From Candidatus Babeliales bacterium (GTDB lineage Bacteria > Babelota > Babeliae > Babelales > JANWKD01), in contig CAVRJM010000001.1 in NCBI GenBank assembly GCA_963722075.1, positions 800,001-864,000 of the forward strand: 64,000 nt of DNA, in the 5' to 3' direction. The position numbers and the translations under genes were made by a program. Below the pieces are notes generated by a model, which was given only the letters and a program-made list of their open reading frames with translations, was not told where the DNA came from and made no database searches. Of the stretch, positions 11,255-27,503 are shown in pieces. Within the stretch, counting starts at the first letter, position 1. Every line of letters starts with the position of its first letter.

Positions 11255-12520
11255 TCATACCTTTACCACCAATAATGAATCCCAATTAGTAGTATAAGCG
11301 CGCGAACGGTACACCCCTTCTTTTGTACCACGTTCATAACAACCTTGCGATGCGGGGCGCACCATATGATTGCCCCACGTACTATTTAATTCATCCATTA
11401 CCTGCATCACCCGAGAAAATCGTTTATTCTTTTCATTATCAGCAAACAAATCTTGTTGTACCTCAGCGGTGTCAATTAAACCTGAGAGTATCACTCCTGC
11501 CCGTTTATAATTATAGCCCTGCACATAGATCGCTTTTAAAAGTTGATCCATATAGTGCAATAATAAGGGTGTAGAATCAGTTGCGTAGGGAAGCTTTATT
11601 TCTCGATAAGGAGCGTAATACGTTTGCTCATCAAAGCGACCAGTAGCAATAAAAATAGTTACATAATAAGCACATGATTGCTGTTCACGTAATTTTTGTG
11701 CTGCACGCCCTACAAAAAGCGCTAACAATTGCTGCAGCAATTGTTTACTAGTCACGGGCGTTTTAAAGCTTCTGGTGCAGGCTATTGATTGTTTAGGTGG
11801 CGCATATTCTTGTAAATCAATACAAGGAATACCGCGCAATTCCCATACCGTTTTCAAAAATAAGGTATTATTTATTAATGATTTAATACGTTTATCATCA
11901 GCACGCGTAAGATCCAACGCTGTTTTAAAAGCGTATCGTTCTAAAGTACGCGCATAGCGATATCCAATCCCCCACACATCGTTAATGGGAACTTTAAGCA
12001 AGTCATCTGGATTAGCTAATTGTGTACTATCAAAAATGCCATTGTACTGTTGGTTTTTTTTTGCTTGTTTATTAGCGAGCTTAGCACGCGTTTTAGTAGT
12101 AGCAATACCAATTGAAACGGGAATGCCTACCCATTGGTAAATACGTTCTTTCAACATAACGGCAACTTCGTATGCGTTGGCACACACATCAAATTCTATA
12201 AATGCTTCATCAATGGAATAGATCTCAGTACTATATCCCAACCCTTTTATGACACTCATAATGCGATCAGAAATATCAGCATATAAGGTAAAATTAGCAG
12301 AGCAAGCAACACCATTTACTCGTTTAATGAGCGGTTCATACTGAAAATAGGGTGCTCCCATAGGAATACCAACTGCTTTTGCTTCTTGAGAACGCGCTAC
12401 TACACAGCCATCGTTATTTGAAAGCACCACAACCGGGCGCTTTTTGAGCACGGGATTAAAAAGCCGCTCGCACGATACATAAAAATTATTACAGTCAACA
12501 AGCGCAATCAGTTTATTCAT
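11255..12520 (-). CDS. umuC: Y-family DNA polymerase V subunit UmuC
   Basis: ALVDCNNFYVSCE, VVLSNNDGCVVARS, YSIDEAF, VWGIG, SRAYTTNW. Confidence 0.95.
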   Translation of the reverse strand: MNKLIALVDCNNFYVSCERLFNPVLKKRPVVVLSNNDGCVVARSQEAKAVGIPMGAPYFQYEPLIKRVNGVACSANFTLYADISDRIMSVIKGLGYSTEIYSIDEAFIEFDVCANAYEVAVMLKERIYQWVGIPVSIGIATTKTRAKLANKQAKKNQQYNGIFDSTQLANPDDLLKVPINDVWGIGYRYARTLERYAFKTALDLTRADDKRIKSLINNTLFLKTVWELRGIPCIDLQEYAPPKQSIACTRSFKTPVTSKQLLQQLLALFVGRAAQKLREQQSCAYYVTIFIATGRFDEQTYYAPYREIKLPYATDSTPLLLHYMDQLLKAIYVQGYNYKRAGVILSGLIDTAEVQQDLFADNEKNKRFSRVMQVMDELNSTWGNHMVRPASQGCYERGTKEGVYRSRAYTTNWDSLLVVKV

Positions 12521-12522
12521 AG

Positions 12523-13062
12523 TTAATTTAATAAGCATCCTTCACTAGGATTTTTATCATAATAAATTGCTTTTTCTGTACTCACCTTTTGCAACTCGTT
12601 CACTTGTTCCACCTTGTTCCTCACCATGGTTAATAAACCCAAACAATATATATGGTTAACCCAATTTTCTTCGGCCATTTTTTTAGCAGAAATATAACCG
12701 GCAAATTCATCACCAATGGTACACATTTTTTTCATAAATGCTTCAATATTATATACGCCTATTTTGCCCTCAGTATTAGGGGTTATTTGTATCCACGGAT
12801 ATTCTTTTTTGCCAGTAGAAATGCTAAGTACTGTTTCAAACTCTATTATTTGCCGATTAACAAATTTTTTTTCTTCTTCATTTAGTTGAGATGACTCAAC
12901 TATCTTTTTATTATTATCAATCACATCAGAAACAATTTGATCTATTTGCGGTACTAATTTCTCTATAAATGGATTAGAGGAAGTTATTCGTTTTTCTTCT
13001 TGCTGCATAGCAACACATGAAATATGAATACATATAAGTGCTATATAAATACGTAGCTTCAT
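12523..13062 (-). CDS. Secreted protein (signal + MQ) ending in CaaX-like CLLN; paralog of 13094-13534
   Basis: MKLRIYIALICIHISCVA-MQQEE...SEGCLLN*. Confidence 0.75.
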   Translation of the reverse strand: MKLRIYIALICIHISCVAMQQEEKRITSSNPFIEKLVPQIDQIVSDVIDNNKKIVESSQLNEEEKKFVNRQIIEFETVLSISTGKKEYPWIQITPNTEGKIGVYNIEAFMKKMCTIGDEFAGYISAKKMAEENWVNHIYCLGLLTMVRNKVEQVNELQKVSTEKAIYYDKNPSEGCLLN

Positions 13063-13093
13063 CGGGGTCTATTCCTTTTTCTAACCGTTAAAA

Positions 13094-13534
13094 TTACTCT
13101 TCTGACGCTAATTCATCAATTCTCTTTTTTAAGTCAACTAATACATCCATTGCTTCTTTGTGCTTCTTTAAGTAGCACCTATCAATAGTCCCACATTTTA
13201 CAAAAAAAACTAGCTTCGCTTCTATCTCAGTTGCCAGCTTCACAATAGTATCAATATCGTATATTCCAGCATTTCCACGGTTTGATAGCTCATCACCATT
13301 AAGCTTATGTTTTTTGCCCGTCGACCGGTTTAATACAAATTTGAATTGAGCTGCTTTCCAGTTGAAAAAATCTTTTTCCTCTTTAAATAAATTAGGTAAC
13401 TTAGCGATCAATGCAGTGTTACTCGCCATTTTTTGTATAATATCATCTATCGAATGTTCTTTCTTGGCAGTCATCCCCATGCTTTCTACCCCTATTGCAA
13501 CTACCAAAAATAACAACACTCTATAGAATCTCAT
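13094..13534 (-). CDS. Secreted protein (signal + MG); paralog of 12523-13062
   Basis: Shared EEK-F-N...F-VL-STGKK...G-G-Y-I pattern. Confidence 0.7.
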   Translation of the reverse strand: MRFYRVLLFLVVAIGVESMGMTAKKEHSIDDIIQKMASNTALIAKLPNLFKEEKDFFNWKAAQFKFVLNRSTGKKHKLNGDELSNRGNAGIYDIDTIVKLATEIEAKLVFFVKCGTIDRCYLKKHKEAMDVLVDLKKRIDELASEE

Positions 13535-13554
13535 GCATTACCCTTTTAAAAATA

Positions 13555-14007
13555 TTAAATCACTTTATGAATAACATAAGAAACTACGCCCCAAATTTCA
13601 ATATCCATATCAGGAGTTACTAATAGTGGCTTATATTTTGTATTTGCAGGCACTAAATAAAGACAATCGCCTTGCTGCTCGATACGTTTAACCGTAAATT
13701 CCCCTTGTATTTGCACCACCACTACAGATCCATTAACCACCGGTAATGCTCGATCTACAATTAACATATCGCCTGATTGTATACCAGCTTCTACCATAGA
13801 ATTGCCTTCTACTCGTACAAAAAAAGTAGCTGCAGGATGCTGTATCAAATAGGTATTAAGATCGAGCTTTTGCTCTACGTAATCATCTGCCGGCGAAGGA
13901 AAGCCAGCGGCAATATAGGTTGATAATAAAGGAATAGGAATTTTTATTGACCGATCATCAACATAATATATTTCTACGTTATTTATTTTTTTTATTTTCT
14001 GTTCCAT
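13555..14007 (-). CDS. umuD: DNA polymerase V subunit UmuD (S24 peptidase)
   Basis: AAGFPSPADDY cleavage site, VEGNSM, GEFTVKR. Confidence 0.95.
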   Translation of the reverse strand: MEQKIKKINNVEIYYVDDRSIKIPIPLLSTYIAAGFPSPADDYVEQKLDLNTYLIQHPAATFFVRVEGNSMVEAGIQSGDMLIVDRALPVVNGSVVVVQIQGEFTVKRIEQQGDCLYLVPANTKYKPLLVTPDMDIEIWGVVSYVIHKVI

Positions 14008-14104
14008 ATGAAATATAATAACAAATATTCACATCTCATCAATCTTTAATAAATTGCTTTTACTTACTTGTTTATTAGTATAATTTTTACCAAAGGAGAA
14101 TCTT

Positions 14105-14521
14105 ATGAATAGAATGAAAAAAATTTCTTTATTATTTCCAATCTTATGCAGTTTAAACTATGCTACTGCAATGGAAAAAAGCAAAAGAGAAAAACAGCAA
14201 TCAATACAATTGGATCAATCATGGAAAGGCCAGCAAGAGGCAGTAGTAAAATGTATGACTCAATCTGAAATTCGTAAACAAACTTACAAATTTTATGAGC
14301 ATGGAATATTAAAAGCAACTTTTAATGCCCAAAAAAAGTATGTAATAATTTATCCTACTGGCCAAAAAACAAAGAATAGTGATGAAAAAGAAAAATTAAA
14401 GATAAAATATAAATTCTTTCTCCAAATTATTACTGATATGGCATTAAGCAATGATGATAAAAAATGCCTTGAGGATCTTACTCAACTAAATGAAAAACGC
14501 CATTCTTGTTTAGTAAGTTGA
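14105..14521 (+). CDS. Secreted CaaX-family protein (W-x-G family) ending in CLVS
   Basis: MKKISLLFPILCSLNYATA-MEKS...QSWKGQQE...TFNAQ...KRHSCLVS*. Confidence 0.8.
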   Translation: MNRMKKISLLFPILCSLNYATAMEKSKREKQQSIQLDQSWKGQQEAVVKCMTQSEIRKQTYKFYEHGILKATFNAQKKYVIIYPTGQKTKNSDEKEKLKIKYKFFLQIITDMALSNDDKKCLEDLTQLNEKRHSCLVS

Positions 14522-14596
14522 ATTTAATTAAACCCTGTTATTCAACTTGAAATCTTCGAATGCAAAAAAAGTCTTGCTTAATTTATGTAAGTTTAC

Positions 14597-14839
14597 AAAA
14601 GCCGTCGTTGCGAGTTTACGAAGCAATCCAGGCTCAGTTATAAGTTTTTCGTTATACATAAATTTATTAATGTTCACAACCCAATTCCAATACAGATTTA
14701 TATAAATCTGATAAAATCATTAACTTTCTTATTCATCTATTGTTGAGCGATAAAACTTGTAACTGTTGTTTCTATAACCGTATATAATTTCATTTATTTT
14801 AACCTGGATTGCTTCGGCAAGCTCGCAACGACGGCTTTT
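14597..14839. repeat. Inverted REP pair about 170 bp apart (REPIN/MITE-like)
   Basis: aaaagccgtcgttgcgag...gaagcaatccagg at 14597-14632 and its near reverse complement at 14803-14839, with an AT-rich spacer. Confidence 0.85.
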
Positions 14840-14893
14840 TTAATGCATAATTTTTTAGGCTTTGAATATTAATTCATCGCGCTTTATAAAAAT

Positions 14894-17335
<2,442 letters not shown>

Positions 17336-17357
17336 AAAATTTTCACTAAAAATGTTA

Positions 17358-18314
17358 TTATTTTGCTTCGTGATTATAATATAATTTGTGTCCACCTTGA
17401 GCACAGCATGGTGCCAATGCGTATCGATTATTAGCTAATTCTTTAAAGCGCGGCAACAGACCTTGTACATATGTATAAAAACTGCCCATCGACATTCCTT
17501 CTGCCTCACGTTCTGCTTCTAATTCAATCCTACTTATCAAACAAAGACCCGAAGAATGTCGTTCAATGCTGCAGATTGCATTGGTAGTCTCATGAAGCAT
17601 CTGCACTGCTTTTTTATTTTTGGCTAGAATAGCAATTTCCATAGTATTGAAAGTAGAATCAGCAGGAATATTAGGGCAACATGCTCTATCACGCTGGATC
17701 CCTACTTTATAGCATTCCATCAATACAAACATTAGCTCAGTTGCCCCACTTGGCTTAGTGATTTGAGCAAGAATATGCAATAACGTTTCCCCTTTATTGC
17801 CTTGTTTATTTACGTCACTGATAAAGCCATGTTCAATAACATATTTTAATTTATGAAAATTACGTAAAGCGCATTTATTATTTTCACGAACGGTTTTTTG
17901 TATCGTTTGTATTCGTTCTCGATTAGAATCATTTTCCAGTTTATTGTGCTCAATATCTTCTAGTAAACCTTGGTCATGCTCATTTATAGCTGATTGCCGC
18001 GCGAAGATATGGGTGAGCGTATCTTTATCAGCATAGCAGTTACTTACCACTTCTTGTGCAACTGCTAAAGGAAGTTCGCTTAGAAAAGTAACTGGAATTC
18101 TATCTTCAAGTAACCAAAAACGTATGGTACCTACATTACCCGGCAGTCCTATTGTGCCATTTTCTATTGCAGCGCGAAGCGCTTTTAATTTGGCCTGCTC
18201 AGAAACTTCATGCATACCATATTCATCTACGGTATATTTTGCAGTAAAATCTGATTCCATAGTATAGAGAATACTGCTACTAAGAAATAAGATGCATAAT
18301 GAAAACAAATACAT
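17358..18314 (-). CDS. Secreted protein (signal + ME) with ankyrin-like repeat
   Basis: MYLFSLCILFLSSSILYT-MESDF; DVNKQGNKGETLLHILA. Confidence 0.7.
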   Translation of the reverse strand: MYLFSLCILFLSSSILYTMESDFTAKYTVDEYGMHEVSEQAKLKALRAAIENGTIGLPGNVGTIRFWLLEDRIPVTFLSELPLAVAQEVVSNCYADKDTLTHIFARQSAINEHDQGLLEDIEHNKLENDSNRERIQTIQKTVRENNKCALRNFHKLKYVIEHGFISDVNKQGNKGETLLHILAQITKPSGATELMFVLMECYKVGIQRDRACCPNIPADSTFNTMEIAILAKNKKAVQMLHETTNAICSIERHSSGLCLISRIELEAEREAEGMSMGSFYTYVQGLLPRFKELANNRYALAPCCAQGGHKLYYNHEAK

Positions 18315-18329
18315 AGTAACCCTTTTTAA

Positions 18330-19352
18330 TTAAATAATACCCACTAATTCTACCCAATTATGAATATCTTCGCTAATTCCATATTGAATGTCAGTAAGCA
18401 ATGTAAATAGCTTCTGAGTAAAAGGACCGGTCTGATTATTATTTACCGTGTACGTAGTGCCTTTATATCGTAAACTTCCTACTGGTGTTATAACCGCAGC
18501 CGTACCTGAGCCAAATATCTCAGTAACTGAGCCATTTTTAATACCCTCAACAACTTCATGAATAGTTATTCGCCGTTCTTGGCAGGCAATGCCATTGGCT
18601 TTACACAATTCAAGAACAGATAAGCGGGTAATACCGGGCAAAATTGAATCGGTTAATGAAGGAGTCACCACCACACCATCTATTACAAAGAAAATATTCA
18701 TGGCCCCGACTTCTTCAATATAGTTTCTCTCAATAGGATCGAGCCATAATACTTGCGCACAGCCAACAGCTTGCGCTTCTTTTTGTGCCCGCATACTAGC
18801 AGCATAATTACCACCAGCTTTTGCTTGCCCAACGCCACCTGCTGAAGCACGTGTATAATGTTCGCTCACTAAAATAGAAACCGGATTAAATCCTTGCTCA
18901 TATAACGCACCAACGGGCGATAGAATAATAAAAAATATAAAATCGGTAGAAGGCTTTAGATTAAGTGTTTTTTGAGTAGCAATCATCGTTGGTCGAATAT
19001 ACAGCGAAGTTCCCCTCTCAGTAGGCACCCATTGCTTATCCAGTTCAACAAGCTTTTTAAGCCATGAAAGAACTTCCTCAACATCAATTTCAGGCATACA
19101 CATAATACGCGCAGAATTATTCATACGTGTTAAGTTGTTACGCGGCCTAAATAGCACTATTCGATCATTAGTAGCAGCAAATGCTTTCATACCTTCAAAG
19201 ATTTCTTGCCCGTAATGCAAGCTTGCAACGGCAGGATCCAATTGAAAAGATTGATAAGGTTGAATACGCTTATTATACCACCCTTGCTCAGTATTCCATT
19301 CCATAACAAACATGTGATCAGTAAATTGCGATCCAAATGGTTTATTTTTCAT
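18330..19352 (-). CDS. ilvE: Branched-chain amino acid aminotransferase
   Basis: LHYGQEIFEGMKA, YIRP, KAGGNY, EVGAMNIF, ILPGITR, GTAAVI. Confidence 0.95.
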   Translation of the reverse strand: MKNKPFGSQFTDHMFVMEWNTEQGWYNKRIQPYQSFQLDPAVASLHYGQEIFEGMKAFAATNDRIVLFRPRNNLTRMNNSARIMCMPEIDVEEVLSWLKKLVELDKQWVPTERGTSLYIRPTMIATQKTLNLKPSTDFIFFIILSPVGALYEQGFNPVSILVSEHYTRASAGGVGQAKAGGNYAASMRAQKEAQAVGCAQVLWLDPIERNYIEEVGAMNIFFVIDGVVVTPSLTDSILPGITRLSVLELCKANGIACQERRITIHEVVEGIKNGSVTEIFGSGTAAVITPVGSLRYKGTTYTVNNNQTGPFTQKLFTLLTDIQYGISEDIHNWVELVGII

Positions 19353-19764
19353 GATAATTGCCCTTTATATTCCTTAGTTTGCACATACATTTGCCAATCA
19401 TACATACAATATTTTTACGAGTCGGAATACTTAAAACAGTAAAAACAGCTTGGTTAAAAATATTAGAAAAAATAAAAATGCCCATAAAAATGCGGCGAAT
19501 ATATAAAGGCCAATGAGCACGGCGTGCACTGCTGGTCATAAAAAACCCAAAGCCACCAATTATGATAAAAACCCCAATTACTATCTTAAGAAGATCCATC
19601 GTATATAGACCGAGTTCATATTCTATTTCACAAAGATCTTGCTCAATGCCCGCTTTTAATAATAAAGGGACAACGAGGCTGGCAATAATTAATAAGAGAC
19701 CTACCATTATCTGATTATTTTTTTTCATATAAATCCTTTGTAATTTATAATGAAGATTGCTCAT
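19342..19764 (-). CDS. Small membrane protein
   Basis: Three hydrophobic segments; start uncertain. Confidence 0.5.
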   Translation of the reverse strand: MSNLHYKLQRIYMKKNNQIMVGLLLIIASLVVPLLLKAGIEQDLCEIEYELGLYTMDLLKIVIGVFIIIGGFGFFMTSSARRAHWPLYIRRIFMGIFIFSNIFNQAVFTVLSIPTRKNIVCMIGKCMCKLRNIKGNYHEK

Positions 19765-20085
19765 TATTGAACAACCTTCATTATAACTTGTTGTTTACGC
19801 TTTATTAACCATTTTGCCAATAAAAGCAACCCGTTGCAGATAACGATCAACCTGTGCAATTGCTGGCAATTGTCCAACTGCGTTAAATGAATTAAAAATA
19901 ACGATAATAAAAAGAGGTAAAATAATAATAAGAATAAAAAAGATTAGCAGTAGAAGAAAGAAGAATGAGTTATAAGGTTAAAATTCTAATTAATAGTAAT
20001 AATAGCACAAAAAATGACTTTTTGTCAAAAAAAGCAAATTGCAGAACACTGGCCTAATCTTGATAGGTATAAGGCTTGATCTGGG

Positions 20086-20313
20086 CTATATACATTCAAA
20101 AGTTTTATCGTCAGCCTCAGACGCCCATTCACTTAATGTTTGATTTAATGCTTGCATATAAGCTTTATCAAAATTTTTAGTTTTCTTTATAACAATGTTA
20201 TTGTTATCCAGTATTTGAAAAGCAATCGAATCACCTGACTTTAGATCTAAAAAATCACGTATTTCTTTAGGTATGGTCGCTTGAAATTTTGTACTTAATT
20301 TTGAAAATTTCAT
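20086..20313 (-). CDS. AbrB/MazE-type antitoxin-like DNA-binding protein
   Basis: SKLSTKFQATIPKEIRDFLDLKSGDSIAF; acidic EWASEADD tail. Confidence 0.85.
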   Translation of the reverse strand: MKFSKLSTKFQATIPKEIRDFLDLKSGDSIAFQILDNNNIVIKKTKNFDKAYMQALNQTLSEWASEADDKTFECI

Positions 20314-20601
20314 ATGTTTTACCTTCTATATTAGATAGTATTTAAGTTTATTATATTAAAAGTAATAGCAATAATACAGGTATTACTATCCATCAAACGC
20401 CTACTAGGCTCTTTATTGTAGCTATTTTATTAAAAAAACTTTTGTAGCAATCCACTTTCATAATTTCTTACAAAAAGCATTTATATATGCTATTTTTTTA
20501 TGGGATTTATTAACATCTAGAAATAGCACAATATATAAAAAATAATCAAACTATTGCTATGCTAGAAGAAAAACTACGTAATAAAGAAAATAAAAAATCT
20601 C

Positions 20602-21423
20602 ATGATGCAACCAATAAGTAATAAATCGTCTTTCATTTATTTATTAGCAACCTGTGTATCAATTCTGCCCACGCTCTTTTCAATGGATAATATAAAACGA
20701 AAGCCTCGTTCTATATCAATGAGTGGATCAGTACTAGATCTTTTTGGCGCACTAGAAATAGATGATAGCCATGAATGTATAACTAAGATGCAAAGAACTA
20801 TACAACCGGATACTGACTTAAATTACCAATCTTCGCAAGGAACTCCCTTAGAGCGAGCTATTGATCTAGAAAAAATTGAAGCAGTTGATTTTCTAATAAG
20901 TAAGGGTAGTAACGCAAACCTTAAAAGCAATTGGTTTAAAGAAACACCACTTCATCGTGCGGCGCGAGCAGGAAATGTTGCGATTATTCAAAAACTTCTT
21001 TGCAAAGTAACAGATCTACAACCCCTTAATAGCGTAGATCAAACACCCCTTCATTTGGCCGTTATATGCTGCCATATAGATGCAGCACGTGAATTTATAA
21101 ATCAAGGGTTGAATGTAAATGCTACTACGAAAAACCTTATGACCCCATTGCATTATGCGTGCATGTTTTCACAAAAACATGCTGAAAGGCACCGGCTCAT
21201 TAATCTATTATTACAAAAGGGAGCATCACTAACTAGTCGTGAAGCACATTATTTTACCCCCTTTGATTTAGCAATCAATGCCGAAAATGTAGAAACAGTA
21301 ACATTTCTTCTGACTAAAATAACCGATCAATCCGTTTTAACAGATTCTTTAAAAATAGCTCAGCAAAAAGGCAACCAAGCCATAATACGCTTATTGCAAG
21401 AAGCTCTCAATAATAAATATTAA
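20602..21423 (+). CDS. Secreted ankyrin-repeat protein (signal + MD)
   Basis: TPLERA, TPLHRAA, TPLHLAV, TPLHYAC, TPFDLA repeats. Confidence 0.9.
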   Translation: MMQPISNKSSFIYLLATCVSILPTLFSMDNIKRKPRSISMSGSVLDLFGALEIDDSHECITKMQRTIQPDTDLNYQSSQGTPLERAIDLEKIEAVDFLISKGSNANLKSNWFKETPLHRAARAGNVAIIQKLLCKVTDLQPLNSVDQTPLHLAVICCHIDAAREFINQGLNVNATTKNLMTPLHYACMFSQKHAERHRLINLLLQKGASLTSREAHYFTPFDLAINAENVETVTFLLTKITDQSVLTDSLKIAQQKGNQAIIRLLQEALNNKY

Positions 21424-21673
21424 TTTTTGCGTTTTAATAATGGGTAAAACATTGTTTTAGAATAAAGCTTATACAGATATATTTTATTATATATATACTT
21501 TAATACCATCTTCATAATAAGCCCTCCTCTACTGTAATGTTTTCATTTCTTTAATTTAATAAAATTATAATTAAAAAATCTATGGCCTGTTCATTATTTC
21601 AAAGTGCTTAACTGTATACTTTTTTTACCAGTTCATGTTATCCCTAAATAATAATGGTTAAAAAGGAGAAAAA

Positions 21674-22054
21674 ATGGCTAAATTACTTGTTATTAATGCA
21701 TTACCAAAAAATTATTACGATGATTGCCATATTGTAGGATCAATTAGTGTTCCACTTGATAAGTTGGAAGCTTATGCACATACTTTAGATAAAAAAACAC
21801 CTATTGTTGTTTATTGCGCTTCATATAGTTGTCCTATTAGCCAAAAAGCATGGCGCATTTTTAATGCCTTAGGATTTACTTCCGTATGGGCTTATGAAGG
21901 GGGAATGGCGGAATGGAGCCAAAAAGATTTCCCCTGTGCCGGTGTATGCCAACAAGAATCTCTTAATCGGCAAGAAAAGCCTCAAAAGCGCGATACACAA
22001 ACCATCAGCGCAGAAGAGTTGCGCAAAAAAATGGAAAATGAGGGCCTTCTATAA
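21674..22054 (+). CDS. Rhodanese-like domain protein
   Basis: HIVGSISVP, IVVYCAS, YEGGMAEW. Confidence 0.85.
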   Translation: MAKLLVINALPKNYYDDCHIVGSISVPLDKLEAYAHTLDKKTPIVVYCASYSCPISQKAWRIFNALGFTSVWAYEGGMAEWSQKDFPCAGVCQQESLNRQEKPQKRDTQTISAEELRKKMENEGLL

Positions 22055-22150
22055 ACCACCCCCTCCTAAATGCCGTTGCACTTTATTTATAAAAAAAGCA
22101 GACTGATAGAATAAAAAACATAAAAGTAGAATTATAAGGATAGAAGAGCA

Positions 22151-22780
22151 ATGCAAATACAAAAACAAACTCCCATACTACAAAAAGAGCATGACGAATC
22201 AATTTTAGTAGTTAATAGAACTGAATTTTTTAAGCATGAATCAGCATGGACTGGCCTTAAACAAGTTGATTTTGATGCGTACTTAACGTTAATTCAAGAA
22301 AAAAAAGAGTTCTTACCGCGCCCAACAATGGAAACGGATACTAATTACAAACAAATTATTCCTTATTTAGTTTTTTCTCATGATGATCGTTACTTTTTAA
22401 TGCAACGAACTAACCAGCAAACTGAAAGCCGCTTAAGAAACAAATATTCATTGGGTATTGGCGGCCATATACGCAAAGAAGATTTAACCGATAATTCTAT
22501 TTTTTCATGGGCACAACGAGAATTTCATGAAGAAGTTAATTATAAAGACCATTTTACTATCACCCCGCTTGGTATTTTAAATGATGATTCTAATGCCGTA
22601 GGCCAGGTGCATGTTGGCTTTATATTTTTATTACAAGGAACCACTTCAGACATTTCTATAAAATCTGAGCTTAAAAGCGGGCAACTCGTTTCATTAGATG
22701 AATGCTCGTTCCATTTTAATGATATGGAAAGCTGGAGCCAAATTGTATACGAATTTTTAATGCAGCAAAAAAATCGTTAA
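22151..22780 (+). CDS. Predicted NUDIX-family phosphoesterase
   Basis: YKQIIPY, SLGIGGHI, REFHEEV, VGQVHVG, ESWS. Confidence 0.85.
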   Translation: MQIQKQTPILQKEHDESILVVNRTEFFKHESAWTGLKQVDFDAYLTLIQEKKEFLPRPTMETDTNYKQIIPYLVFSHDDRYFLMQRTNQQTESRLRNKYSLGIGGHIRKEDLTDNSIFSWAQREFHEEVNYKDHFTITPLGILNDDSNAVGQVHVGFIFLLQGTTSDISIKSELKSGQLVSLDECSFHFNDMESWSQIVYEFLMQQKNR

Positions 22781-22794
22781 AAAAATTCTAAGCA

Positions 22795-23013
22795 ATGTTT
22801 ATTATTATCGTTGGATCAAAGCAACGCAAGATCTTTAAAAAAGCTCTTGTTGATCGATTTTGCCCGATATGTAACCATCAAGGATTACTATTGTATTCTA
22901 TACAGCAATGGGCGACTTTATTTTTAGTTCCTATTTTCCCGGTGAGTAGAAAAAAATTGTATATCAAATGTCCTCATTGCAATAATGGCTATATTGCTTA
23001 CGATACACCGTAA
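22795..23013 (+). CDS. Zinc-ribbon domain protein
   Basis: CPIC...WATLFLVPIFP...CPHC. Confidence 0.75.
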   Translation: MFIIIVGSKQRKIFKKALVDRFCPICNHQGLLLYSIQQWATLFLVPIFPVSRKKLYIKCPHCNNGYIAYDTP

Positions 23014-24301
23014 CTTTTTAAAAAAGCGTACAGATTTTTAAATATAAAATAATCAATTGCTTCTTTAACTGTCTGCGCGCCATATTTTTTCTCTAACAAA
23101 TCTCGGTGCTTTAAAAACTCATTCACGATAGTAGGGCATGGCGTTTTTGGCCATTGTACTTTAGGTGGCTGCCCATGGGATTCCACCATATTTGAGACAA
23201 GATGCTCGCCAACTTTTTGTAGATCTTTAGCTGCTTTATTTATTTTTGCTATTTCTTGTTTACAATAATTAACAACATCTGTTTTCCCAGCTTTTTGCGC
23301 AGCTTTTGCTAACTTAGCAAATTCATCGGATGTTTTTCTTAGATGATCATATTTATTGGCGACTGTTTGGAAAAATTTATGATGCAGTACCATATCAATC
23401 GCACCATCAAGTAATACTTCAAGCATCTGTGGCCCCGTCAATTTAAAAAAATCGCCAAAATGCATAGAAATGCCAGCCAATGCAACGAGTGTCAATCCTT
23501 TATTAGCTATTTGAAAAAGCGGCATATTTTTGCAAGCAATACTCGCCATAAAACAAATAGCGGACATCATTTCTGGGCTATAGAGCTCGCTTAAATCAAC
23601 GCCATCGTCCAGTAACTCCTGCATCTTTTGCATGCGGAATTCAGGTTCTGTCGGTATTATTTCTTCCATGGTTAATTGCTCCCATGGCAGTCTAAAATTT
23701 CCTGCGGTTACGATGGAATTAAGTCTATTAACACCATCAATCAATAAGTGCGTATTATGTGCCAATGACTTTGCTGCAAATGAAAGGAAATGATCAGAAT
23801 ATATAAGCGCATTATTAAACTGTTCGTAAATATTTTGTGCTCTTCTATGAACTACATTACCTGCTGCTTGGGCATACTTTAAGAGCTCTCTTCCAAATTC
23901 AATATATTGCGATACAATCGTATTATCATTCTGTTGGGCATGGTTATAGGCAATTTCGCCATATAAGAATGCTGTGGCAGCCAATTCACGTGCTGCAGTT
24001 GTTTGGGCATCAGACCATTGCTCAAGCGCATCCGCACAGAAAGATTTAATAGCGCGGGTGTTTTCGTCACCATCATCAATTAATTGCTCATCAGCAGTTG
24101 ATTATAATGCAGTTCTAAATCAGCAATATGTACAATTGCACTTAAATTGGCAGATAGTGGAGATGCCTCTATCGAAAGAACAGCTGACAAGGAAGTAAGT
24201 TTTGCATGTAATTGGTTTAAAGAGTTTTCAAGTGCTTGGTTTGGATATACAAATTGGTTACATACCATTAAGAAGCTGATCATGTACCCTCTCATATTCA
24301 T
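22998..24301 (-). pseudogene. Secreted hypothetical protein with one frameshift near 24100
   Basis: Signal-bearing ORF 24080-24301 joins the frame of 22998-23984, which is open upstream to about 24102 (STADEQLIDDGDENTRAIKSF...). Confidence 0.6.
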
Positions 24302-24315
24302 ATCCTTTTTGTTAA

Positions 24316-24681
24316 TTAAAATAATATACAATTACTTCTAACGGTTTTTACACCCTTATGATAAAATAAGAGGGCATTAATATTGCATTTCATAATAGTT
24401 TCAAAGCATTCATAACTTAGTTCAATTGAACTTTTATTTTTAAAGAAAGTAGTAACGGTACGATGGGGATAATCAAATAAGGCGATTAATTCTGCATCAA
24501 TGGTCATAAAAGGTACCGCATCTGGAGAAACTTGTGCTGTTTTCATTAATCGATCAATAAATTGTTCTCTTTGTGCCCACCGTTTTTTTACTTTTTTTAT
24601 TTGTGATGAAGTAAGCGGTTCCATTGAATATGAAAAATTACCGTATATTATTAGAAATATAAAAATAGAAAATGATTTCAT
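24316..24681 (-). CDS. Secreted CaaX-family protein ending in CILF
   Basis: MKSFSIFIFLIIYGNFSYS-MEPL...VRSNCILF*. Confidence 0.8.
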   Translation of the reverse strand: MKSFSIFIFLIIYGNFSYSMEPLTSSQIKKVKKRWAQREQFIDRLMKTAQVSPDAVPFMTIDAELIALFDYPHRTVTTFFKNKSSIELSYECFETIMKCNINALLFYHKGVKTVRSNCILF

Positions 24682-24752
24682 TAAAATCCCCCTTTCTAAT
24701 GCTTATATAATACCCAATAATAACCATAAGACACAAGAAAACGGAAAAGCCC

Positions 24753-25196
24753 TTAATTAATAATGCATTCTGTTGCTTTGTCCTCATTTCTCACGCTAAC
24801 GTTGTATCTAATGCCTTTTGAATCAGGCAAAGATCGCATGCTTTCGTGGGTAAGAAGCGCTAATTCTTCTTGAGCGAGCGGTGAAGGAGAAATGGCTTTT
24901 AGAAAAATATCAAATTCTATCTCTCTAAAACTTGTTAATTCAGATCCAAAATAAAATATTACCTTGTTTTGAGATGCGTTAAAACATACCTCTAATTGCT
25001 CATTCTTATAATAAACTGGTAGCTTGGCTCGCTGAGCAGATTCCATACATTCCTTGGCAAGCTCCTGCTTACCATTCCAAAGTGCTAATTGATTCAAAAA
25101 AGATTTATCAATTTCTTCGGCATTCATTGAACGTAACGGTAAAAAACCCGTAAGAATCCCCAATAAGATAATAGTTTTAATATTCGTTGCTTGCAT
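24753..25196 (-). CDS. Secreted CaaX-family protein ending in CIIN
   Basis: Signal-MNAEE...WNGKQE...CFNAS...ATECIIN*. Confidence 0.8.
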   Translation of the reverse strand: MQATNIKTIILLGILTGFLPLRSMNAEEIDKSFLNQLALWNGKQELAKECMESAQRAKLPVYYKNEQLEVCFNASQNKVIFYFGSELTSFREIEFDIFLKAISPSPLAQEELALLTHESMRSLPDSKGIRYNVSVRNEDKATECIIN

Positions 25197-25232
25197 ATAC
25201 TTTTTCCTTTCTTTTTTTAGCTTACACAAAAG

Positions 25233-25808
25233 TTAGCTAATGAGACACGTTGCTGCTGCCATTACTGCACTTCCATCATTATATAACTTTTCTTTTGGAT
25301 GAGTATCTCCATTCATTAGATTATTAATTTTAGCTGCACAATCTATTTCAAATAATGCTTGATCTACATCTAACTTTAATGATGCAATCGAATTTATAAT
25401 ATCATCTGTTTCATTTGAAATAACATTTAAGAAAGTATTAAATGGTATTTTGTGATAATCTTCTTGATTATGAAGCGAAATAACATTTTCTTCCGCATTA
25501 AAACTAGCCACTAATTCGTTTGAATTATAGGTAAATGGTTCTCCAGTAGCGCGCGCAAAATCCATACAAAGAATAGCAAGTTTAGTTTTACCATTCCATA
25601 CAATTAACTGCTTTAATAAATATGTATCATGCATTATTGGTAAATCACCCATAGCCACAGCCGTTAATGCTGACGTATCCTCATCAGCCGTAACCATCAA
25701 TGATAACATATTCTCGTCTTTTTTTTCTTCCTGCTCCATAGAAAACAAATAGGAATAATTGAATGTACCACACAACACAATAACCATTCTAATCTTTTTA
25801 GCTGCCAT
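25233..25808 (-). CDS. Secreted CaaX-family protein ending in CLIS
   Basis: Signal-MEQEE...WNGKTK...SFNAE...AATCLIS*. Confidence 0.8.
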   Translation of the reverse strand: MAAKKIRMVIVLCGTFNYSYLFSMEQEEKKDENMLSLMVTADEDTSALTAVAMGDLPIMHDTYLLKQLIVWNGKTKLAILCMDFARATGEPFTYNSNELVASFNAEENVISLHNQEDYHKIPFNTFLNVISNETDDIINSIASLKLDVDQALFEIDCAAKINNLMNGDTHPKEKLYNDGSAVMAAATCLIS

Positions 25809-25834
25809 GCTAGTTCTTTTGCTATTCAAAGAAA

Positions 25835-26230
25835 TTAATATAAATTACAATTCCATCCGGTTCGTGCAGGCGCTTCAGATTTTTCTTCTTTTTTAGCTTC
25901 TTTCTTTCCAGAAATATCATCGAGAAATTTTAATAAAGACTCATAGCTCATTGTTTCATCACCTAAAGATGAATTTAATCTCACGCTATCTTTATCAAAA
26001 ATAGTTGTAAATTTTTCTTGTTGAAACTCAATGCGTTTACCTGTTTCAATAACCTGGTTGCGATAATCGAGAATAATATCTTGTTTACCTTTCCATGAAT
26101 CGAGTAAAAAAACTAATCGCAATGCCTCAAAATCTACTTGACTCGTACGCCCTTGCTCCTGTTCCATACCAAACATGGAAGCCACGAATAATATTCCCAA
26201 TAGATTTCCTAAAAATAATTTCTTTATCAT
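25835..26230 (-). CDS. Secreted CaaX-family protein ending in CNLY
   Basis: Signal-MEQEQ...SWKGKQD...IFDKD...GWNCNLY*. Confidence 0.8.
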   Translation of the reverse strand: MIKKLFLGNLLGILFVASMFGMEQEQGRTSQVDFEALRLVFLLDSWKGKQDIILDYRNQVIETGKRIEFQQEKFTTIFDKDSVRLNSSLGDETMSYESLLKFLDDISGKKEAKKEEKSEAPARTGWNCNLY

Positions 26231-26245
26231 ACAAACTCCTTTGTA

Positions 26246-27340
26246 TTATTGTATATATTTAATACGCCAACCGGCTTCCATATAGTTCTTAACTTCAGTA
26301 AATTTTTCTTTAAATGCGGCATCTAATTCAGTTAATCTAAATGTTCCCTGCGCCGTTCTAATCCACGGATCAATGCCACGGAATTTATTTTTAGCGAGCA
26401 TATCATAATCAGCAGAATCAACACAGTTAATCAATTCTTTAATATGTAATGCTTTTTGTAGATTTTTTTGCAAGAGTTCATCATCTGAATTAATTAATTT
26501 TTCCCATACCATTTCATCAACTGAAAAATGAATCTCATCGCTAGTGATTAAACCAATTGCCAATGCTTGTTTTAAAACAGCTGCCATAATCTCATTGGCA
26601 ACAAAACTATTATAATTATTCCATCCATTTTCATTTTGCATAAAATAGAATGGAATTAAAGCAAATTTTCGCGCATATTCAATGTCAGTAAATATCCACG
26701 CACCTTGTTCTACAATCAAATGATCCAATATATTCTTAATATCTTCTTCAGTAAGCAACTGCTCTACCAAGGCACCTTGCAAATTATATTCTAAACGATC
26801 GGCGCATAATTCAGGCAATTTTTGCTCTAACAATATAAACCCGTCATTCTTATGTAAAATATCATTCACCTTAATATCGTGTTTTTTTAGTAACGCAGGG
26901 ATCGAAGTATTATTAATAAAATGTAAATGATTATGATCTTGATAAGAATCACCCATTTGAGAAACATTAAATAAAAAATCGCCACCATGAGAAAATACCG
27001 TATGAGAAACATCATGTAATAAACCAGCGATTTGTTCATGTAACGAGGCACCGTATTTGCGCAACAACACAAAAACGCCTATTGAATGGTCAAAACGATT
27101 GTAATCTATTTTTTTAATAGTGTAATAATTGGTACCATATTGGCGTATTTTTTTAAGCCGTTGTACATAGGAATCGTTAATCAACTCAATTAATACCGGC
27201 TCATTAATTAAAAAATCACCGTAAATAGTTTCTAGTAATAACGATGGCTTTTGTTCATGTTCGTACGAAGCTTTTATTAAAATACCCATCACAAAAAATA
27301 AACCCATTATGAATAGTATTCGTGAACTTTTTCTTATCAT
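26246..27340 (-). CDS. HD-domain phosphohydrolase with N-terminal signal/anchor
   Basis: RLKKIRQYG, NRFDHSIGV, LLHDVSHTVFSH, LCADRLEY. Confidence 0.85.
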   Translation of the reverse strand: MIRKSSRILFIMGLFFVMGILIKASYEHEQKPSLLLETIYGDFLINEPVLIELINDSYVQRLKKIRQYGTNYYTIKKIDYNRFDHSIGVFVLLRKYGASLHEQIAGLLHDVSHTVFSHGGDFLFNVSQMGDSYQDHNHLHFINNTSIPALLKKHDIKVNDILHKNDGFILLEQKLPELCADRLEYNLQGALVEQLLTEEDIKNILDHLIVEQGAWIFTDIEYARKFALIPFYFMQNENGWNNYNSFVANEIMAAVLKQALAIGLITSDEIHFSVDEMVWEKLINSDDELLQKNLQKALHIKELINCVDSADYDMLAKNKFRGIDPWIRTAQGTFRLTELDAAFKEKFTEVKNYMEAGWRIKYIQ

Positions 27341-27503
27341 AGCTGTTTCCTTTACGATAATATGATTTATTTCTATTAAAAATGAATAGTATAATAAACA
27401 AAAGCGATTCATACAAATTTCTTGTATTATTGCATAAAACTATTTTTATTATGGTATATATAAGAAATATAGTTACCATCTTTATTTTAGTAGAGAAATT
27501 ATT

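Follow-up and report, generated by a model that had tools for sequence, protein, structure and literature searches.

The stretch of DNA analysed here, the window, comprises 64,000 nucleotides (nt) of contig CAVRJM010000001.1 (positions 800,001 to 864,000), from the genome of a Candidatus Babeliales bacterium, a member of the Dependentiae (Babelota). It carries a tandem array of four small co-oriented genes, 26-71 nt apart, that begins 15 nt past an HD-domain gene (Table 1). Their products open with a basic and hydrophobic stretch followed by [S/G]-Met-[E/N], which our own hydrophobicity heuristic, used throughout to call signal peptides and the membrane and cytoplasmic classes, takes for a signal peptide. 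Then come a core of about 70 amino acids (aa), a linker, and a cysteine placed exactly four residues from the C-terminus, denoted Cys(-4) below. This is the position expected of a CaaX box (C-aliphatic-aliphatic-X), and the cysteine occupies it in the four array genes as well as in a fifth paralog located elsewhere in the window. CaaX prenyltransferases are cytosolic eukaryotic enzymes. Judged from the sequences, the C-terminal box is under selection, and the farnesyltransferase (FTase) or the geranylgeranyltransferase I (GGTase-I) of a host probably lipidates the array proteins. The bacterium is likely to be a parasite of protists: the cultured Dependentiae, as their main texts present them, are intracellular parasites of amoebae and flagellates (PMC4378268, PMC6561590).

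The genome that carries the window (G000; 1.47 Mb, 99% complete) was parsed with a dicodon model of our own into 1,362 predicted proteins. A hidden Markov model (HMM) of the core, built without any protein of the window, recovers among them all four array paralogs (E 4.5e-19, 3.7e-9, 6e-6 and 3.6e-6 for paralogs 1 to 4), the fifth one and a variant copy of it carried by contig C3. The kinship proposed in the initial annotation, that of four co-oriented secreted-type paralogs built on a common core, is therefore upheld. A purine-rich Shine-Dalgarno-like stretch precedes the first ATG in three of the four array genes and the internal Met in none, and on that ground we discarded the idea that translation begins at the post-signal Met. 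Short-read contigs from soil runs, which may be the source sample, span all four stop/CaaX positions with zero letter differences there.

Two profile searches of a phylum set of 261 genomes matched 17 and 18 of them. Convincing members come from nine genomes in three families (G000, G108, G109, G110, G023, G033, G245, G246 and G256), so that the core does recur in the phylum; weak matches (E 2e-4 to 1e-2), mostly restricted to the signal peptide, were not counted, those inspected being unrelated signal-peptide proteins. A library of 1.84 billion proteins gave 27 family matches, 22 of them from outside the window, and pooling loci and proteins (7,510 sequences) gave 62, which reduce to 51 clusters sharing less than 60% identity. 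Three to eight copies per genome were seen in G000, G108, G109, G110 and G246. All matches belong to Dependentiae genomes or to records without organism label; the member from G246, a genome of the same order as G000, is labelled 'Candidatus Dependentiae bacterium'. A word-index protein search returned six matches only, all family members, a search of longer proteins was empty, which is weak evidence, and scans of viral, metagenome and genome contigs with DNA patterns of single proteins found no relatives. The cores of 55 members had no match in Pfam or NCBIfam and no sequence match in the PDB: as proposed, this family appears to be undescribed.

Cys(-4) ends 35 of the 51 clusters, and 30 of the 46 found outside G000. 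Elsewhere among the last 15 positions, no site has cysteine in more than seven clusters, and in signal-peptide proteins in general 1.3% of the final 30 residues are cysteines. Four Cys(-4) in a row would then arise by chance with a probability of about 3e-8, and 35 among 51 with p of about 1e-53, a value that counts kin as independent. The second aliphatic position, a2, is hydrophobic in all 35 boxes (L16, I11, V5, F2, M1), against a background of 28% at -2. The last residue, X, is distributed as Q15, S6, L4, N4, Y4, F1 and I1; it is never K, R or P, residues that fill 22% of the background at -1, and in 21 of the 35 boxes it is Q or S, typical farnesyl-type ends. These boxes fit the rules of the yeast FTase, which, in the part of the published screen relevant here, excludes D, E, K and R at a2 and K, P and R at X (PMC10320760). 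The family search profiles included the tail column, and the count of 35 in 51 may be biased for this reason; in the least biased set, that of the 22 non-window library matches, in which the matched stretch ended before the tail, 12 end in Cys(-4). Selection on the position of the cysteine, claimed at first from four genes, thus finds support in the whole family.

One might object that the four tails share their cysteine by chance or by recent descent only, since the array genes are tandem paralogs and plain Cys(-4) is not enriched genome-wide (see below). The array paralogs, by contrast, are 20-35% identical in pairs, with unalignable tails. In a tree of 53 rows and 76 columns, with many open forks, the window paralogs are scattered among the homologues of other genomes and form no single recent clade, so that their duplications must be old; paralog 4 clusters with the CSLQ and CSFQ homologues of G109 and G110 (support 91/93). 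The box label changes nine times over the tree, and Cys(-4) is retained over branches near one change per site. The preservation of the box in members from other sources contradicts recent duplication, which we find scarcely credible. Nor would it be easy to see in the cysteine a periplasmic disulfide, metal or redox residue whose likeness to CaaX is incidental. Several members do hold further cysteines in the core, and the role of the tail cannot be read from low-confidence models; such a role, however, leaves unexplained the fixed distance from cysteine to stop over unalignable linkers of 18-55 aa, the hydrophobic a2 of every box, the residues excluded at X, the basic runs described next and the recurrence of this motif in ankyrin and WD40 proteins outside the family. 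We regard it as very improbable.

Many homologues carry what resembles the second membrane signal of Ras-type proteins. At least three K/R lie at -9 to -5 in 10 of the 35 boxed members, against 39 of 1,251 other signal-peptide proteins, and an extra cysteine lies near the box in 9 of 35, against 60 of 1,251. The tails KKSKKKRCIIS, RKRKRKCCCILN, KKKCSIQ, KRCAIL and KCTIL are examples, and the boxes CTIL, CAIL and CIIS found in the family are those of yeast Rsr1, Cdc42 and Ras2, respectively. The proteins might still be directed to the host with a tail that acts as another eukaryotic signal, S-palmitoylation or a hydrophobic docking motif, or be prenylated only after host lysis, with little function. 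Runs of cysteine ahead of the box in several homologues (CCC, CWC, WWC), a member that ends in CCCCFSCW without Cys(-4), and the low score of CNLY in the Ras reporter (see below) would suit this view. Palmitoylation, however, needs no fixed distance from the C-terminus, and here the cysteine stands at -4 in 35 members against seven at most elsewhere in the tail, mostly with farnesyl-type X residues; we deem this alternative unlikely, and keep host prenylation as the preferred reading.

Is the motif restricted to this family? Nine relatives were sampled over 2.4 Mb (400 kb each of G108, G109 and G245, 200 kb each of six others), from families other than those holding G122 and G163. In G000, 9 of the 175 proteins with a signal peptide followed by Met terminate in C[ILV][ILV]x, as do none of the 307 remaining signal-peptide proteins, none of the 581 cytoplasmic ones and a single one of the 299 membrane proteins; without the family, 4 of 169 signal-peptide+Met proteins remain against 0 of 581 cytoplasmic ones (p=0.0025). 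Pooled with the relatives, family excluded, strict CaaX ends number 11 in signal-peptide and 4 in cytoplasmic proteins (p=0.038). Kin not being independent, the genome-wide p-values given here overstate the significance. In a positional control on signal-peptide proteins, family excluded, C-x-[ILV] is found 21 times at -4, and none of 27 other offsets has it more than six times. After clustering, C[ILV][ILV]x stands at -4 in 10 signal-peptide clusters, where the mean over the other offsets is 0.65 (Poisson p 2e-9); neither the cytoplasmic class (3 against 1.0) nor the membrane class shows an excess. Of 16 CaaX-type proteins scanned beyond the family, eight match ankyrin repeats and three WD40/beta-propellers. 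Such ankyrin/WD40 proteins, most of them with signal peptides (L174-L176 of G061, L078 of G108, L200 and L202 of G120), end in CIIS, CTIS, CSIS, CLIS, CHIM and CVIC, and an architecture like that of AnkB thus appears in several Dependentiae families.

At the other end of the mature proteins, the succession of a signal peptide and Met, rightly noticed in the four paralogs, is not specific to them, as it occurs in 175 of the 1,362 predicted proteins. In roughly half of the signal-peptide proteins, the predicted cleavage site is directly followed by a Met, in the form [L/I/S/A/V]-x-[A/S/G]-Met (in the window: 24316-26230, 12523-13062, 14105-14521 and 20602-21423), a pattern present in most sampled relatives and hardly in G042. 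The residue that follows this Met is D, E, N or Q in 143 of 233 cases in G000, against 494 of 2,133 for internal Met. This is the pattern recognized by eukaryotic NatB acetylation, but bacterial cleavage sites, too, are often followed by acidic residues.

Would host enzymes accept these boxes? Two yeast screens of all 8,000 CXXX sequences provide scores in their supplement rows (PMC10320760, PMC11304957); the scores concern CXXX sequences in yeast, which is not the host, rather than the present proteins. The Ydj1_HM scores of CILF (5.46), CIIN (5.03), CLIS (4.64), CNLY (4.43) and CLVS (4.88) all exceed the authors' cut-off of 3, a lenient one that most CXXX sequences pass, the HM scores being smoothed averages. 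The Ras_HM rows give 7.1 for CILF, 16.4 for CIIN, 18.0 for CLIS, 2.9 for CNLY and 10.2 for CLVS (CASQ: 4.9). In the rows for FTase-null yeast at 37 °C, CILF scores 0.071 and falls within a class of 137 sequences below 0.2 that holds the geranylgeranyl boxes of Rho and Ras proteins, and CIIN, CLIS, CNLY and CLVS score 0.8-1.3. These reporter and FTase-null scores make CILF look geranylgeranyl-type and the trio CIIN, CLIS and CLVS farnesyl-type; for CNLY they suggest, at most, farnesylation without trimming. The mixture of farnesyl and geranylgeranyl X residues that had been proposed is thus borne out by the yeast data, CIIN and CLIS behaving like farnesylated Ras-type boxes. Of the two boxes initially called non-canonical, CNLY deserves the term and CIIN is an ordinary C-aliphatic-aliphatic-X box.

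To meet such enzymes, the proteins must leave the bacterium. Secretin genes are present in 258 of the 261 phylum genomes, usually in two or three copies, two in G000; many phylum secretins lie in frames of 800-1,000 aa. GspF-type genes (two per genome) and Omp85 were found in all five genomes tested, G000 included, the secretin and GspF families also covering type IV pili. FHIPEP (type III), VirB4 (type IVA) and VipB (type VI) were found in none of these five genomes, with positive controls detected, in a search that did not include Dot/Icm. G000 therefore combines what is expected for a type II substrate, a predicted Sec signal peptide and a type II-like apparatus. As far as the main texts go, a type II system is the one secretion apparatus that was detected in Babela (PMC4378268), and type II components with two gspD copies are listed as core genes (PMC4776705). 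In the absence of type III, VirB4 and type VI markers, a type II-like secretin route is the exit that we tend to favour for the array proteins, on the basis of gene content.

Several observations weigh against host prenylation of the array. Proteins released by a type II system with no further device would end up in the lumen of a vacuole, not in the cytosol; in the published descriptions, Babela grows inside a vacuole (PMC4378268), and the bodies of Chromulinavorax lie in the host cytoplasm and shed vesicles (PMC6561590). The tails of the four window proteins are poor in basic residues (2, 2, 0 and 1 K/R at -12 to -5), so that the second membrane signal of many homologues is weak in them. Conservation of Cys(-4) in homologues is incomplete: 16 of the 51 members do without it, including the forms of G033 with four and five repeats and a zf-MYND fusion, and the box must therefore be dispensable for the activity of the core, whatever that is. 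Plain Cys(-4), which the initial annotation expected to be enriched in signal-peptide proteins, is not: it ends 13 of 482 signal-peptide against 11 of 581 cytoplasmic proteins in G000 (p=0.41), and 34 of 1,285 against 30 of 1,517 when G000 is pooled with its nine relatives and the family excluded (p=0.25). Comparing signal-peptide+Met with cytoplasmic proteins in G000 gives p=0.015, and p=0.75 once the family is removed. The signal requires the full C-x-aliphatic motif and the positional control. Even strict CaaX ends, outside both G000 and the family, do not differ significantly (7 of 809 against 4 of 936, p=0.36), in part because the classifier placed some signal-peptide/ankyrin proteins in the cytoplasmic class, and in the 200 kb sampled from each of three of the nine relatives (G029, G042, G098) none of the signal-peptide proteins ends in Cx[ILV]x. 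Finally, G000 codes for two Rce1-like (PF02517) proteins.

The latter raise the question of whether the bacterium reads the tail itself. An Rce1-like (CPBP) membrane protease or some periplasmic enzyme might cleave at or lipidate the cysteine for surface sorting, as myxosortase does with MYXO-CTERM; the array proteins would indeed traverse the periplasm if their signal peptides are real. Rce1-like proteins were found in four of the five genomes tested (G000, G108, G109 and G110). One, L205 (G000:C1:732551-735853), is a multi-pass membrane protein in a frame of about 1,130 aa with an internal PF02517 domain, conserved in all four genomes. Yet G246 (94% complete) has family members ending in CTIL, CAIL and CTIQ and no PF02517 match, and the domain, detected in 11 of 14 control genomes, is unremarkable. 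In MYXO-CTERM and sortase-like tags, the Cys motif precedes a transmembrane helix and a basic cluster, while hydropathy of the mature array proteins reveals no transmembrane helix in their tails, with just three residues past the cysteine. The a2 and X rules, the basic runs and the extra cysteines mirror eukaryotic Ras/Rho tails instead. As for a bacterial prenyltransferase, PPTA (prenyltransferase alpha repeat) passes the cut-off in one of 261 genomes and is absent from G000, and PF00432 was found in none of five genomes, a weak blank as its control was also silent. The sole PPTA match, L134 (G200:C42:444-527), is carried by a contig some 1 kb long and may be contamination or a transferred eukaryotic gene. 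All in all, we consider it quite improbable that a bacterial enzyme reads the tail, and return to prenylation by the host.

As to the core, AlphaFold2 models of paralogs 1 and 2 (predicted local distance difference test, pLDDT, 86 and 79.6; 55-row alignments) agree on two helices, four strands and one helix. The tail is of low confidence in both (pLDDT under 50-65), which suits an exposed CaaX box. Structural comparison with Foldseek brought no relative, nothing in the PDB or among viral structures reaching E<=0.001 (best E 0.29-0.54). The top rows of VIA-align over both models have Z 6.3 (root-mean-square deviation 4.9, 81 aligned), 5.9 (3.2, 75) and 5.7 (3.0, 64), below the trust level of about 8. 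These neighbours, Bacillus subtilis YkuJ and the streptococcal type VII secretion chaperones SIR_0168 and SIR_0178, share 6-13% identity with the models; they are Gram-positive proteins, probably of a common arrangement, and we know of no CaaX-like tail in them. Rows for Pur-alpha, WWE and polymerase structures were rejected as common arrangements. A single Trp is near-invariant in the core; conserved positions are mostly aromatic and no polar residue is invariant. The domain is also found as four or five tandem repeats and fused to zf-MYND, which, with this conservation, suggests a binding module rather than an enzyme. We would tentatively see in it, short of an even wager, a non-catalytic protein-interaction (adaptor) module. 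Among the members devoid of CaaX are P0019 (fused to a zf-MYND finger), P0014 (ending in KSEL, which we take to resemble an endoplasmic reticulum retention signal), and P0006 and P0007 (five and four tandem core repeats).

Table 1. Features of the array and of its surroundings (positions in the window).
Feature	Position	Strand	Remarks
Paralog 1	24316..24681	minus	121 aa; signal-peptide-like N-terminus, Met-Glu, core, 18-aa linker, CILF
CaaX box CILF (paralog 1)	24319..24330	minus	geranylgeranyl-type X
Paralog 2	24753..25196	minus	147 aa from ATG; signal-peptide-like N-terminus, Met-Asn, core, 39-aa linker, CIIN
CaaX box CIIN (paralog 2)	24756..24767	minus	
Paralog 3	25233..25808	minus	191 aa from ATG; signal-peptide-like N-terminus, Met-Glu, acidic insert, core, 55-aa linker, CLIS
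CaaX box CLIS (paralog 3)	25236..25247	minus	farnesyl-type X
Paralog 4	25835..26230	minus	131 aa; signal-peptide-like N-terminus, Met-Glu, core, 22-aa linker, CNLY
CXXX box CNLY (paralog 4)	25838..25849	minus	non-canonical a1
Fifth paralog	14105..14521	plus	138 aa, end CLVS; convergent with the LeuRS (leucyl-tRNA synthetase) gene; HMM E 2.1e-10; outside the span first annotated
HD-domain gene	26246..27412	minus	directly upstream of the array; syntenic marker
Unrelated signal-peptide + Met protein	12523..13062	minus	179 aa, end CLLN; same tail type, different body

The surroundings of the array tell something of its history. In G110 three family genes sit between the HD gene and the LeuRS gene, as a syntenic counterpart, and the fifth paralog abuts the LeuRS gene here; the five window paralogs were probably once a single cluster for this reason. 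An open reading frame (ORF) listing places the HD-domain gene on the plus strand; the sequence and a stop-free minus-strand translation place it on the minus strand. The LeuRS gene (15058-17328, minus) is split into several ORFs, an intact 838-aa copy being present on contig C3. This contig is a variant, 84-97% identical, of parts of 14048-24090 of the window, and may represent a second strain, unless the C1 copy is misassembled. Just downstream of the array, a 328-aa ORF (22998-24090, minus) matches part of a 1,193-aa ORF of C3 (G000:C3:755-6368), which is followed there by two similar ORFs of about 118 aa and by short repeats of its own C-terminal part, a layout that recalls polymorphic toxins in its arrangement alone. 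On C1 the copy is less long, and its likeness to C3 stops near 24090. Two signal-peptide+Met genes, including that of the CLLN-ending protein, separate a umuD/umuC pair (11255-14007, minus); the CLLN-ending protein matches neither the core HMM nor Pfam.

Bacterial proteins that borrow host prenylation are known elsewhere. The Salmonella type III effector SifA reportedly has a host-prenylated tail. In the same genus GtgE, also a type III effector, obtains a host lipid anchor via a C-terminal Cys motif, as far as the source describes it (PMC13423502). Both differ from the present family in their type III delivery, animal host, known activities and occurrence as single genes rather than paralog arrays. 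AnkB and the seven Pel proteins of Legionella pneumophila are described in the sources as host-prenylated effectors (PMC2916131, PMC13081727), and the CaaX ankyrin proteins of Dependentiae run parallel to AnkB. AnkB and Pel enter the host through injection by a type IV system, Dot/Icm, whereas the Dependentiae proteins carry N-terminal signal peptides in genomes whose detected outer-membrane export system is type II-like; no sequence or fold match to them was found, and here one small domain family has expanded, often with K-Ras-like basic runs. By analogy, the array proteins would work like AnkB and Pel, yet they differ in phylum, export signal and domain. The tails of eukaryotic Ras/Rho proteins (K-Ras4B, polybasic with CaaX; yeast Rsr1, Cdc42 and Ras2) include boxes found unchanged in family members, preceded there by basic runs or an extra cysteine; in contrast to them, the family body is no GTPase and the gene is bacterial, with a signal peptide. 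Within the phylum, Babela massiliensis and Chromulinavorax destructans have ankyrin proteins with signal peptides, for which the same Sec/type II export to the host was proposed; their cytosolic delivery is assumed by the authors in the main texts (PMC4378268, PMC6561590) and is not backed there by the signature of a host enzyme. Neither 'CaaX' nor 'prenyl' appears in the main text of any of the Dependentiae papers examined (among them PMC4378268, PMC6561590 and PMC4776705), supplements being outside the search. No earlier report of prenylation in Dependentiae was found in a literature search that left out most subscription journals, where an earlier mention is possible.

The following scenario would account for these observations. 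Signal peptidase would cleave the array proteins before Met; after Sec export, they would cross the outer membrane via one of the two secretin systems and arrive in the host cytosol, a step that we infer from the tail because the enzymes that read it are cytosolic and eukaryotic. CILF would then receive a geranylgeranyl group, CLIS, CIIN and CLVS a farnesyl group with normal trimming, and CNLY probably a farnesyl group only. The lipid anchor would tether the proteins to host membranes, where the core may bind partners on the cytosolic face of the bacterium-containing compartment or at other host membranes. A much bolder view, which we find rather doubtful, is that Dependentiae at large deliver signal-peptide proteins to the protist cytosol by twin secretins, with both mature ends shaped for the host (an N-terminal Met-Glu/Gln/Asn/Asp and a CaaX box with Ras-like second signals), the array being a single module within hundreds of secreted, host-addressed proteins whose delivery dispenses with type III, IV or VI injection.

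The Dependentiae are a whole phylum of obligate protist parasites and are not known to possess an injection system. Signal peptides are present on 44% of the proteins of a cultured member, according to its description (PMC6561590). A selected tail, not known to be read by any but cytosolic eukaryotic enzymes and borne by proteins with signal peptides, is a sequence-level argument for delivery to the cytosol. Besides adding an undescribed domain family, the finding, if true, would show that secreted proteins of Dependentiae reach the host cytosol, and would extend host-prenylated effectors from pathogens with type III and type IV systems to bacteria that use Sec/type II-like export.

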